A stretch of 64,000 bases of DNA from Octopus vulgaris (taxonomy: Eukaryota), in the NCBI GenBank assembly GCA_951406725.2, contig OX597828.1, forward strand, positions 24,242,001 to 24,306,000, in the 5' to 3' direction. The notes under the pieces are model-generated. The model ran no database searches, was not told where the DNA came from, and worked only from the letters and a program-made list of their open reading frames with translations. Numbering within the stretch: position 1 is the stretch's first letter; the number at the start of each line of letters is the position of its first letter. Positions 775 to 33,700 of this stretch are shown in pieces. The position numbers and the translations under genes are program-made.

Positions 775-1287
775 ACAGATAAAGGGTGAAATATAATTAA
801 TTTAATAAAATCAACAAATTTCACCTAGTAGCACTTCGGTATGGAAAAGGACCATATTCGGTAAAATTTTGTATAATTATAACAATAAGGGTCTTTGCAA
901 CAAGTTGCTTGACCACATACCGAAAATTTTAGAAAGAGCAGCCAGAGGACTGCTCTTTCCTTTTACTACAAAAATATGTCTCCACAGACAACAATATTTG
1001 TAACTCATATATGGCAAAAAAAAAAAAGAAAAATAACGAAATCAAACATAGTATTATGTTGATAAAGGAAATGAATCTTATGATTCTAATCCAGAAACGT
1101 GCGTCCATAATTGACCGTGGACTGTTTGATTTCGTTATTTTTCTTCTTTTTTTGCCATATATGAGTTACAAATATTGTTGTCTGTGGAGACATATTTTTG
1201 TAGTAAAAGGAAATAGCAGTCCTCTGGCTGCTATTTCTAAAATTTTCACTATGTGGTCTATCAACTTGTTGCAAAGACCCTTATTGT
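775..1287. mobile_element. Fold-back Penelope-like non-coding element between (TA)n tracts (arms 882-1048 / 1123-1287, extra tail 775-881)
   Basis: The ~165-bp arms are reverse complements with scattered mismatches (acaataagggtctttgcaacaag... / ...cttgttgcaaagacccttattgt). A degenerate HHR sits in the spacer, and (TA)n flanks both sides. Confidence 0.8.
1053..1111 (+). ncRNA. Degenerate minimal type I hammerhead ribozyme
   Basis: Stem I attatg/cataat; core ttgataa (2 changes from CTGATGA); stem II gga..gaatc-ttat-gattc..tcc; GAAAC-gtgc-GTC. Confidence 0.6.
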
Positions 1288-1589
1288 ATATATATATATA
1301 TATATATATATATATATATATATATATATATATATATATATATATATATATATATATATATATATATATACATCTATATGTATATATATACATATATATG
1401 TATGTATATACATATATACATATATATATATATGTAGAGAGATAGGGAGGGAGGGAGGGAGGGAGAGAGAGAGTGTGTGTGTGGTGGGGACAGCTGACCA
1501 AAAAGTTAGCTTCGCTAATCACTAATCCGCTAACAAAAATGTTAGCATTGCAAACACTACACCGTTCAACAGCTAAGTAAATTTACCTT

Positions 1590-2756
1590 TTTACTTATTC
1601 TTAGTTCAAGTTTTGAAGAGTGCAGTTCGGTTTCATTAGTTATGCTTTCAAAGCTATAACGGAGGTGACAAAGGAGCATATTCTGCGTAATTTGCTTTTT
1701 GAGTTCAATAAAAGCAGCAACACAACGGGAAGGGATCGGACAATAAGCGTAAATCAGTGTCAACGGTGGTTCCAGAAATTCCAAGAAATACCAGAAATGC
1801 CGAGCCGCAAACTACATCCTAGAAGACGAGCCTCATCCTGGGAGATCTGTAGAGCTAGACGAGGGTATCCTGCCAAACCTAGTGGAACAAAATCCCATCG
1901 TAGCTGTTGAGGTACTAGCAGAAAAGCTTGGGTTTGGTCATTCAACCATTTATCCACATCTGCATGCCATCGGAAAAGTCAGGAAATTGGGTCAATAGGT
2001 TCCTCACAAGCTTTCCAAGTTTAATCGTGCGCAGAGTGAATGTGTGATCTTCTTTGCTGTCACGTCTTACAGATGAACCTTTTTTTGTTTCGTGTAATGA
2101 CTTGGTGACGAAAAATGGCTTCTCGATAAAAATATCAAGCGCCGAAGACGGCGAGTAGGGAAAGGAGAAACACCGGCGCCTCACGCTAAAGAAGGTTTAC
2201 ACCCATGTAAGGTGTTGTATTCTGATTGGTGGGATATGAAAGGTTTAGTCAACCTTGAACTCTTAAACCCAAACCAAACGGTAACAAAGATCCACTGCGA
2301 TCAGCGTGAGCGGCTAAAATCAAAGCTAGAAGAAAAATGACCATTTTTGATTCCATGACAAAAGGCGTTCTTCCATCAGGATAATGCTCGGCCACATACA
2401 GCGAGAATGACATTCCAAAGGCTGGAGCAGTTTTATTGGGAAACGATACCCTACCCAACAAATTCATTGGACATTTCTTCATCTGATTATCATATATTCC
2501 GCTGTCTTAAAAATCATTTGGACGAAAAAAATATGAATTCTGTAGACGAGGGCAGAACAGTACTGGAGGAGAACTTTTCGTCACGGACAAGGGAATTTTG
2601 GAAGATGACATTGTACGTCTGCCATATAGATGGAAGAGTATTGTAGAAAATGGCGGAGAGTATATTTTCGATTAAAAAAAAAAACTTTGTTTATCTTAAT
2701 CTTGAAAAATAAAAGAAGTATAAAAAAACCCACTATTCATTGGATGACCCGTTATA
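1590..2756 (+). mobile_element. Mariner element remnant; right TIR-like end about 2727-2754 followed by TA, left TIR not seen
   Basis: Transposase pseudogene followed by ...ttcattggatgacccgtta|TA. Confidence 0.7.
1659..2675 (+). pseudogene. Mariner (DD34D, SETMAR-like) transposase pseudogene
   Basis: Start ATG mutated to ACG (xEVTKEHILRNLLFEFNK). Motifs Q*VPHKL (WVPHEL), HQDNARPH, PYPTNSLDISSSDYHIF (YSPDLAPSDY) and terminal ENGGEYIFD*. Multiple frameshifts and stops. Confidence 0.92.
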
Positions 2757-3391
2757 TATGAACCTATTTAAAAAGCTGATAACTACAAATACGTATGATG
2801 AGTATATTTCTATGGCATACAAAATAAACAAAAGTAGTTACGTAGAAGTCTTATCTTGACAGCTGTTTCGGATGAATCATGGATTATGTATACATATTAG
2901 TGTGTATCTATGCATGCGAGTGAATATGCATCGATGTTTGAATGTGTATATATATATATATATATATATATATCCGTGTAATGTTTAGAAAATTAAAAAT
3001 ATTAATGGTTCTGTTTCGGATAAAGGGAGTTGGATGAATATTTGGTATGCAGATTAATTATAAATGCTTCTCCATAAATTTTAACAAACAAACAAACCAC
3101 TCAGGAATAACATGAAGCCAAAGCTTATTTTCTGTATCGCATCGAGATTTAATCAGGCAAAACAAAATAAAATCCATTAAGTTTTAAAATATTAATAGTT
3201 TTTAAATAATGAGGTTTATAAGTTATACATTTGTTATTAGTTTTCTGTTTTCCCTTTCTATTTTCATTTCTCTCATTATTTCTGCCCAACTCTTTCTTTC
3301 TCTTTCTCTTCTATTTTATCTTTCTTCATTGCCCCCTTTCTATCTATCTGTATTTCTTTGTCTCTCTCACGCTCAGTCACATGCTCGATCG

Positions 3392-3450
3392 CTCTCTCTC
3401 TCTCTCTCTCTCTCTCTCTCTCTCTCTCTCTCTCTCTCTCTCTCTCTCTC
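3392..3450. repeat. (CT)n microsatellite
   Basis: Direct reading. Confidence 0.95.
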
Positions 3451-3831
3451 TTTGTGCTTTTCTATGTCGCCTACGCACCATCTCTTTACCACTCTATTTT
3501 TTTCCAACTTGAATTTTGTATTGTTCAAGTTGGGCACGCACATATTCCCCCAAAACACTCACTCACGCTCACAAATACTGGCGCAGGGAAGCACAAATAA
3601 CTCACATATGTGAATATATATAAATAAATAAATAAAATATATATATATATATATATATGTATATATATATGAGTATATATATACATATATATATATATAT
3701 GTATATGTATGTATATATATTTGTATATATAGCTATAGGACTGACAAAAACAGTTAGATTGACAGACAGGTGTGAATTAATATATACATATATGTATGTG
3801 TGTGTTTAGTTGTATGTAGGTATATATATAA

Positions 3832-3915
3832 AGATAAATAGATAGATAGATAGATAGATAGATAGATAGATAGATAGATAGATAGATAGATAGATAGATA
3901 GATAGATAGATAGAT
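3832..3915. repeat. (GATA)n microsatellite
   Basis: Direct reading. Confidence 0.95.
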
Positions 3916-4459
3916 ATGTATGTATATATGTATATATACACATATTTATGCATACATATTCATACATACATAATCACACGTTTATCGTTCTCTATATTTA
4001 TTTAACAAATACTCACAACATTCCCTCTGTTTTTTATACCTATAAAAGTTTTCATTTCAATATGGCTGCAGTCGCTGCGCTGCAACAAGGGAAGGAATGT
4101 GTGAGAATTTGATAGCATTTAGCGATATACTGCCTCTGTTTATGCTAATTGCAGATTTGAAGCAATTTTATTTCAATAAAATAGAAAAATCATTTCTAAA
4201 TCTCTGAAAGAGGGACATTCAGTAACAGTACTCAAAAGTAAAGATTATTTGCCAACATAATGTGGTAGTCCCTGTTGGGACGGATGTTACTGCTATTTAG
4301 CACCAGGAAACATAGTTTTCAGCTTGTTCTAAAAATATAAGGACACAGATAGTGTGATGTATAGCCAGCTGGAGACAATGTTTCTTGGGGCTAAATAGCA
4401 GTAACATTCGTCCCAACCGGGACTGTCACATTATGTTGACAAATAATCTTTACTACATT

Positions 4460-31917: not shown

Positions 31918-31947
31918 TGACCCGGCAACGCCGGGTCATAGTGCTAG
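31918..31947 (+). mobile_element. Helitron-type 3' terminus (GC hairpin + CTAG|T)
   Basis: tgacccggc-aac-gccgggtca tagtg CTAG t. Confidence 0.7.
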
Positions 31948-32689
31948 TGCATGTGTCTATATATGTGTACATCTATATATATACATCTACACAAAATACA
32001 AAGTTATATCTTGATATCGTTAGTGATAACAATACTCAAAATATATAACAGACTGGAATTGTAGGCCCGTCTCTTGCAATTTCGATCAATTGTATCTTGT
32101 CCTCCCTCTTGTGGCTACAATCCAGCCTACCTTTACTTCTGGGGGGACATTTTAAATTTTTATCCGGGACGTCCTACGTTCCAGATATAAAGGTAAAAGT
32201 AAAATATTTCCATTTTGCAAGGTTCCAGTCGTGTACTCCCTTACACGCTCCGTTGACTCGAACCTTGCTTCTATTGTGGCGAATTTACCGCCTCTGGTTA
32301 GATACTTGATATCTTTCATAGTCGCACCAAGACACTTTTCGATGGTGCTTTCCTTCAGGTGTTCAAATCTTTTTTTTTCTCTACATTGTATACTTTATAG
32401 ACAATAGTCTTTTCTTTAATTTAATGGGCTATTCCATTTCTGCGCATTAATTTTATTTTTAATTTATTCCCATTCATGTGAAACCACTTATTCAAGTTCA
32501 AGTCATTGATGCAATTTTATACCAATTGCTATTTTTACTTTTGTTATGTTACGATTATTTTATACTTTAGTTTGATTTTAATTATTACTTACTACATATA
32601 ATTCAATTGTTATTATTATTATCTCTAATTTTTATTGTTAAAGTGAAAGTATCTGACATAAAATAGAGAAATGTTTTTGTTTCACTTTT

Positions 32690-32900
32690 AACACGTAATA
32701 CTGAAATAGTGGAGAAGATATGATATTGCTATGGCTCGCCCTAGGCAAGAAGTTGAACGTTTTTTTTGCCCATGAACCTACATGGACCCTAAATAAGGCA
32801 TGTGTAAAATTTGAATGAAATTGGTTGTGTAGTTCTCAAGTTTTAGGAATTCACACAGACAGACAGACAGACACATACACATTCTCAGTTTTTATATATA
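32690..32900 (-). mobile_element. Non-autonomous Helitron-like 5' region
   Basis: Minus: tatataaaaactgagaatgtg..(tgtc)n..aactacacaaccaatttcattcaaattttacaca, a layout typical of invertebrate Helitron-derived repeats. Confidence 0.6.
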
Positions 32901-33023
32901 TATATATATATATATATATATATATATATAAAATATTATTAGAGACAAAACCACTATTTTGCAAAACAAACAAGGAAAGACTTAATCAATACATAAAATT
33001 TTAATAAATAGTCAAAAAAACCG

Positions 33024-33066
33024 CCACTACAATTGTTTCTTGTCTTGATCGACAATCTTCAGGTGG
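33024..33066 (-). ncRNA. Intact minimal type I hammerhead ribozyme (mirror copy)
   Basis: Reverse complement of 33114-33156. Confidence 0.85.
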
Positions 33067-33113
33067 ACTTCCAATAAGTCAGTTTCATAATTTGAAACTG
33101 ACTTATTGGAAGT

Positions 33114-33156
33114 CCACCTGAAGATTGTCGATCAAGACAAGAAACAATTGTAGTGG
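33114..33156 (+). ncRNA. Intact minimal type I hammerhead ribozyme
   Basis: ccac CTGAAGA ttgtc-gatcaa-gacaa GAAAC aatt GTA gtgg. Confidence 0.85.
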
Positions 33157-33700
33157 CGGTTTTTTTGACTATTTATTAAAATTTTATGTATTGATTAAGT
33201 CTTTCCTTGTTTGTTTTGCAAAATAGTGGTTTTGTCTCTAATAATATTTTATAATATTTTACTATAAAATTGGATTTAATCCTAAATCTGATTTTTTCCC
33301 TGTAAATTTGGATTTATTCCCTAATATTATTATATATATATATATATATATATATATATATATATATATATATATATATATATATATATATATATATATA
33401 TATAAATATATATATATGTATGTATATATGCATATATACGTAAATATATGTACATACATACATATATATGTATAGAGATATGCATATATGGGTACAGGAT
33501 GTCACAAAACTTAAACATGAAATACGAAAATAACGTTGGGTAAGTAAACAACGAGAGAAACAAAGGTACATATATGTATGTATATATGCATATATATGTA
33601 TATGTATATATATATATAGTTAATCCAAACATGAACAAAGAGAAAACACAACGTGGAACAAGTATAGTGTTATTGGACGCTCAGGAAAGAAAGAAGGAGT

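Follow-up and report, generated by a model that had tools for sequence, protein, structure and literature searches.

We investigated a 64,000-nucleotide stretch of the Octopus vulgaris genome (assembly GCA_951406725.2, contig OX597828.1, positions 24,242,001 to 24,306,000; hereafter the window), and identified four fold-back elements, named A, B, C and D, embedded in (TA)n microsatellites. They are copies of four high-copy families that lack an open reading frame (ORF) and carry a hammerhead ribozyme motif, and each is probably a single insertion made in trans by the reverse transcriptase (RT) and GIY-YIG endonuclease of a Penelope-like element (PLE), priming two complementary DNAs (cDNAs) at a cut (TA)n. 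We infer that both priming events took place on one RNA.

All four palindromes are present where an initial annotation of the window had placed them, and the (TA)n flanks on both sides and the extra tail on one arm that it described were likewise found in each, as was their mutual unrelatedness in sequence (longest cross-family match 17-19 nt). In either orientation, each element runs from (TA)n through a tail-less arm, a junction and a tailed arm, which ends in a tail of 80-110 nt, to a second (TA)n (Table 1). The paired arms are ~93% complementary in A (882-1048/1123-1287), 94-95% in B (18390-18564/18585-18759), 89-90% in C (18944-19076/19274-19408) and 100% in D (32931-33087/33093-33249). 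An inverted-repeat search of the entire window was dominated by microsatellites.

Searches of the genome (2.8 Gb in 227 contigs) returned 2,505, 1,532, 4,070 and 1,151 first-look candidates for A, B, C and D, respectively, of which 40 were scored per family. Copies of A, B and C extended in the 5' direction enter the tail of a previous unit, indicating that these families consist of head-to-tail monomers, of 555, 505 and 480 nt (GC content 31-34%); the longest ATG-initiated ORF in the doubled monomers is at most 54 amino acids. D is a 256-nt linear unit, starting at positions 1-9 in 39/39 loci and tandem in none of them, and in the 10 examined of 25 copies with a full 5' end the upstream sequence has nothing in common except the inverted arm or microsatellite. 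Extension of the arms, proposed as a route to full-length PLEs, led to the next monomer in A to C and to the fixed end in D, and never to an ORF. D copies are 98-100% identical, in a layout shared by older sister subfamilies; the D family is young. Judged by their sequences, A to C are non-LTR-retrozyme-like (LTR, long terminal repeat), and D is linear with a fixed 5' end and not tandem. An RNA polymerase III promoter was considered for D and rejected: a B-box-like 9-mer lies in stem II, followed by a T7 run, but is missing from the sister subfamilies.

Each family has two fixed outer ends, at monomer positions ~448-460/555 in A, 425/505 in B, ~394-401/480 in C and ~173/256 in D. These ends, hereafter sites 1 and 2, are 80-107 nt apart, and the interval between them is the optional 3' tail. 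Site 1 also terminates direct-only insertions (loci L058, L118 and L119), indicating that it is a priming site in its own right, and a CCCT/CCTTA-like motif, recognised by eye, lies 10-20 nt before both priming sites in A to D. An inverted head-to-head copy with 5' truncation is present at 35/39 D loci, 18/21 B loci, and ~15/20 each for A and C. The suggested enrichment of (TA)n in the flanks was confirmed, with (TA)6 on both sides at 36/39 (D), 18/21 (B), 10/19 (A) and 9/20 (C) loci, against a background of 5.3% of random 50-nt windows. With tandem monomers in A to C, PLE-type ends and only such short ORFs, the families agree with the earlier suggestion of ORF-less, hammerhead-bearing PLE parasites or retrozyme-like elements. 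In an evenly spaced 400-kb sample of the genome, 12 of 55 inverted pairs are TA-flanked fold-backs, ten of them tailed; three carry a whole or half hammerhead by script, and two more have a core-like sequence by eye. Extrapolation from ~12 per 400 kb gives 4 x 10^4 to 1.5 x 10^5 fold-backs per genome.

To study the junctions we used copies of A, B and C chosen by tail-only queries, an unbiased set of 35 simple two-arm inversions with 70 arm ends; non-inverted copies, tandem or multi-piece insertions (including L232) and duplicates (L201, L176 and overlapping B loci) were left out. A tail-only genome search with D gave no candidates, and there is thus no 5'-unbiased set for that family. In nine of the 35 copies the tail-less arm extends 5' beyond the tailed arm by 10 nt or more, and the tail is confined to the tailed arm, so that each arm contains sequence missing from the other, upholding the earlier proposal of two priming events. 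Mutually exclusive arms also occur in element A of the window (arms starting at monomer 209 and 280) and in L040, L041, L046, L076, L170 and L173. Neither arm of such a copy can have been copied from the other, which excludes a plain snap-back. D includes mirror-image junctions (4/13 and 13/4; 1/5 and 5/1), and its junctions overlap by at least 2 nt in 30/35 copies of a query-biased set. Subfamily and private variants are common to both arms of an insertion, pointing to a single template.

In the mechanism that we propose, the endonuclease would cut both strands within (TA)n, and one DNA end would prime at site 1 and the other at site 2 of the same RNA. For A to C this would probably be a retrozyme RNA, circular or multimeric; for D it would be a linear transcript. 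Both cDNAs would stop at the RNA 5' end or earlier, be joined head-to-head via short microhomology or filler, and then be filled in. The hammerhead would likely act as a dimer, cutting multimers to monomers or circles, and would not set the inversion point. In the twin priming of L1 elements, attributed to Ostertag and Kazazian, two target ends reportedly prime two cDNAs that are joined by microhomology; these are said to copy non-overlapping RNA, with a variable second start. The elements studied here differ in having overlapping cDNAs and two fixed starts. Two priming events on one RNA match what has been described in vitro for a Poseidon PLE, in which both strands are cut and extended, two internal start sites define the tail, and hammerhead cleavage is not required (PMC11167929, available text).

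The genome contains candidate helpers. We identified intact 781-amino-acid ORFs that encode RVT_1 and GIY-YIG domains, the endonuclease being preceded by a Cys motif, a feature given for the Neptune and Nematis clades in the available text of Craig 2021 (PMC8557442). This family has many copies (L085, L090, L193 and others) with a ~1 kb 3' untranslated region and an optional ~38-nt tail, and they end at (TA)n, ~100 nt past a U3/A8 hammerhead-like motif. The genome has at least two more PLE families. One GIY-YIG match, at L096, resembles an exon of an SLX1-like host nuclease rather than a PLE.

Several observations weigh against mobilisation of A to D by a PLE through two primers. No real homology to A-D was found at the 3' ends of 35 GIY-YIG loci (of 150 listed, from 6,136 candidates), matches near such loci being separate insertions or a 32-nt AT-rich match, and the sole PLE family with a visible tail has ~38 nt, as opposed to 80-110 nt in A-D. 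Target-site duplications (TSDs) are unreadable inside (TA)n, stem I is mismatched in most C copies, and gene conversion could also give the variants shared between arms. Finally, near-symmetric junctions (within 12 nt) occur in 16/35 tail-selected copies against a permutation mean of 8.9 (p=0.001), and these fit snap-back priming as well as two RTs running off one RNA end.

This excess of symmetric junctions also fits an alternative that we consider unlikely while still giving it real weight, in which the same elements and PLE helper are retained and the inverted arm arises by self-priming (snap-back) of one cDNA, or by copying of a hairpin transcript, antisense or read-through, made from a fold-back already in the genome. 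The small hairpin at the D 5' end and the 4-nt overlaps are consistent with it, and antisense-template self-priming has been proposed for PLEs (PMC3846280, available text). However, the nine copies with mutually exclusive arms argue against it, and the mirror-image junctions, the single-arm copies from D position 1 (L019, L178) and the direct-only copies ending at site 1 are unexpected under it. What remains as a rival to two primers is a read-through hairpin template with asymmetric jumps.

The initial annotation had placed the inversion centres at or beside the hammerhead, with cleavage setting the RNA 5' end of "HHR-bounded" (hammerhead-bounded) RNAs and two cDNAs joining there. The four window centres do lie 26-109 nt from a cut site, and three copies outside the 35-copy set start within 2 nt of it (L232 of C at the cut; L037 and L040 of A 2 nt after), so that cleaved RNA may be used occasionally. 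Yet the true junctions precede the cut by about 55 nt in A, 26 nt in B, 109 nt in C and 62 nt in D, and D inverts at a fixed RNA 5' end 72 nt upstream. In the tail-selected set of A, B and C the predicted clustering at the cut is absent, with 0/70 arm ends within 10 nt of it; only 4/35 copies have an end inside the motif, 8/35 contain the whole hammerhead, and fold-back midpoints span from 155 nt upstream to 160 nt downstream of the cut. All window junctions are 5' of the cut and retain sequence absent from the cleaved 3' product, which, with the lack of ends near the cut, indicates that the template is uncut or religated RNA. Uncut RNA is also the main template of an anole PLE (PMC11167929, available text). 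The long, conspicuous copies are those that reach the hammerhead, which explains the earlier impression. As a general rule, ribozyme-defined inversion is refuted, and we regard it as very improbable for these elements.

Two further explanations can be dismissed more briefly. Long inverted arms and TA flanks recall TA-targeting miniature inverted-repeat transposable elements (MITEs) or foldback DNA transposons with terminal inverted repeats (TIRs), which are highly improbable given the asymmetric termini, centres that vary by copy, the lack of fixed internal sequence or a symmetric TIR pair, the many single-arm and head-to-tail copies, and the fixed polarity of the hammerhead motif. An assembly or long-read fold-back artefact, suggested by the identical D arms and by the lack of a strand-change joint in sequencing-run contigs, which are too short to span the hairpin or an empty site, is scarcely credible when the arms of A, B and C differ by ~5-11%, family-specific outer ends are fixed at dozens of loci, and contigs of two other sequencing runs place the end of D, at site 1 (33253), in (TA)n.

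We examined the hammerhead motifs themselves. The annotated type I hammerhead in each palindrome stands for D, which is complete in both arms (core 33118-33124), and in part for the others: A and C have variant motifs in one arm each, and B has only half. In a structure-aware scan, the A motif is complete as a U3/A8 variant in the tail-less arm only, and the C motif, confined to the tailed arm and on the minus strand, has an A-C mismatch in the first base pair of stem I. Element B retains the 3' half (GAAAC..GUA), the CUGAUGA core having been lost at the junction; other B copies have the whole motif. The CUGANGA..GAAAC pattern matches four times in the window (two in D and two in other elements) against 0.53 expected, a count reached by none of 100 shuffles, and the structure-aware scan of the 400-kb sample gave 19 matches (12 separate insertions by our count) against 0, 3, 0, 0 and 1 in five shuffles. 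With hammerhead-containing queries, the core pattern was found at 7/14 (A), 12/14 (B), 15/20 (C) and 30/30 (D) loci; a stricter pattern gave 33 distinct variants in the retrieved genome DNA, whose stem I sequences differ yet still pair. Stems I-III of the family motifs pair, C being degenerate; cleavage is a prediction from sequence. Stem III is a full or near palindrome, a feature reported for dimer-dependent hammerheads (PMC4209133, available text), and folding predicts no full hammerhead from one monomer and an intermolecular stem III from two D copies. An Rfam scan, uninformative for minimal hammerheads, showed none among the 150 of 270 window matches listed, only sub-threshold microRNA (miRNA)-type matches on hairpins and microsatellites.

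Table 1. Features of the four fold-back elements in the window; monomer positions refer to the family unit.
Feature	Position	Strand
(TA)n target left of A	707..768	
A 3' tail (monomer ~449-555), bounded by priming sites 1 and 2	772..881	-
A tailed arm, 5'-truncated at monomer 280, downstream of hammerhead	882..1048	-
A tail-less arm, monomer 209-448, extends 71 nt further 5' than tailed arm	1052..1287	+
A type I hammerhead motif, U3/A8 core 1059-1065, stem I 6 bp, predicted cut after 1105	1053..1111	+
(TA)n target right of A	1287..1370	
(TA)n left of B	18258..18297	
B 3' tail	18298..18389	-
B tailed arm from monomer 238 (within stem II), hammerhead 3' half, cut position 18548	18390..18565	-
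B junction filler containing short re-copied pieces	18566..18584	
B tail-less arm from monomer 239, hammerhead 3' half, cut position 18601	18585..18759	+
(TA)n common to B and C	18759..18852	
C 3' tail	18853..18943	-
C tailed arm, from ~monomer 133	18944..19207	-
C degenerate type I hammerhead motif, core 19142-19136, predicted cut 19099	19093..19148	-
C tail-less arm, three pieces (monomer 154-189, ~136-151, 263-400), hammerhead skipped	19210..19408	+
(TA)n right of C	19408..19520	
(TA)n left of D	32893..32930	
D tail-less arm, monomer 13-173, complete hammerhead motif, cut 33028	32931..33087	-
D tailed arm from monomer 4, overlaps other arm by 4 nt, hammerhead 33114-33156, cut after 33152	33084..33249	+
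D 3' tail	33250..33330	+
(TA)n right of D	33331..33405	

We additionally noted related sequences in the window and elsewhere. A fifth hammerhead-bearing insertion, a single arm between (TA)n runs (50143-50332, minus strand), ends ~9 nt past its cut (50151), with a motif resembling those at L087 and L147. Further CUGANGA..GAAAC cores at 17629-17652 and 33708-33731 (both minus), whose stem I failed the scan, belong to another repeat family also found at L095. At 4844-5004 (plus) lies an older single-arm member of the D superfamily (84%), truncated at its 5' end and ending in (TA)n; a decayed palindrome (79%) at 4237-4454 is by eye like the fold-back at L149:5052-5371, and 2.6 tandem copies of a 184-bp unit, a common dispersed repeat resembling a short interspersed nuclear element (SINE), lie at 10419-10895. 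At L129:2098-4600, a GC-richer 359-nt tandem unit starts at (TA)n and carries seven hammerheads, two inverted and five direct, making it a fifth retrozyme-like family with the same footprint. Two pairs of A copies share a junction at two places (L195 and L201; C26:40961772 and 40963464), probably through segmental duplication. Family B has a hot spot of 5' truncation and inversion at monomer 298-346, peaking at 313-315 (L100, L102, L104-L108, L125), ~58 nt downstream of the cut, which could reflect stalling of the RT or a short RNA that has a 5' end of its own. In the D hairpin, clustered A>G differences (33121, 33122, 33147, 33178, 33179 and 33181) in two contigs of a run guessed to be RNA (depth ~6) are essentially absent from two deep runs and may reflect adenosine-to-inosine (A-to-I) editing of the hairpin; none of the sequencing runs listed is recorded as RNA.

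The components of this system are known. Animal non-LTR retrozymes (Cervera & de la Pena 2020, PMC7229834) also lack an ORF, are AT-rich and consist of head-to-tail monomers, each containing a single type I hammerhead, and PLEs have been proposed as their mobiliser, as here (PMC7229834; Li, Clavereau & Pollet 2026 preprint, 10.64898/2026.07.22.740005; available text of both). Unlike those elements, the monomers described here measure 480-555 nt and have cores that are minimal or variant, most copies are truncated tailed fold-backs in (TA)n, and D is not tandem. In the text available, the words "inverted" and "microsatellite" do not appear in PMC7229834, nor "tail" and "target site" in the 2026 preprint.

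Endonuclease-containing (EN+) PLEs share with A-D the 5' truncation, partial tandems, inverted head-to-head copy, one-end tail and hammerhead in the repeat; Naiads PLEs share the (TA)n preference, and EN+ PLEs act in trans on sequence flanked by pseudo-LTRs (pLTRs) (PMC3846280, PMC8557442, PMC11167929, available text). The combination of 5' truncation, partial tandem, inverted copy and tail is thus an already described PLE pattern (PMC8557442, PMC3846280, PMC8969392, available text). EN+ PLE tails, as far as these sources describe them, are 30-40 nt, whereas A-D have tails of 80-110 nt, no ORF and, in the loci examined, no pLTR homology. Non-autonomous PLEs, namely MRC1 and other Chlamys derivatives and the short Penelope elements of Heliconius (PMC6685494, available text), are also short, ORF-less and often head-to-tail. 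The Chlamys derivatives resemble autonomous 3' ends and belong to a clade without canonical hammerheads (PMC8557442, available text), whereas here unrelated hammerhead families share architecture only.

For cephalopods, a study of a squid genome gave hammerhead counts but no analysis of them (PMC6962438, available text), and a 2026 octopus repeat annotation reports active Penelope families, the words "hammerhead", "ribozyme" and "palindrom" being absent from its available main text (PMC13282606). A literature search, with most subscription papers and Repbase outside it, found no paper describing retrozymes that carry a PLE footprint or the joining of PLE cDNAs from two primers. The architecture has more precedent than the initial annotation supposed (Craig 2021, Arkhipova 2013, Cervera 2020). 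New here are the PLE footprint carried by retrozymes, the evidence for two primers and, by extrapolation, the scale.

These results bear on how hammerhead RNAs and PLEs are related. Cervera 2020 left the retrozyme mobiliser open between LINEs (long interspersed nuclear elements) and PLEs (PMC7229834, available text), and the 2026 preprint argues for a PLE link from phylogeny and co-occurrence (10.64898/2026.07.22.740005, available text); the retrozyme-like monomers identified here bear the PLE integration footprint itself. As to how PLE inverted repeats arise, short, young and numerous copies such as those of D allow two-primer and self-priming models to be separated with genome data, with the 256-nt D RNA an easy in vitro template. 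The fold-backs might be mistaken for MITEs, SINEs or miRNA hairpins; if transcribed, they would form long double-stranded RNA (dsRNA). More tentatively, it is possible that dozens of unrelated hammerhead RNAs in this genome, both circular retrozyme-like and linear SINE-like as in D, parasitise PLEs, and that their ~10^5 insertions record a general two-primer mechanism, a PLE dimer priming from both ends of a cut (TA)n at two fixed points of one RNA. If so, the mobiliser of animal retrozymes would be settled, inverted pLTRs and tails would be explained without self-priming, and PLEs would rank among the main sources of perfect dsRNA hairpins on which A-to-I editing could act.

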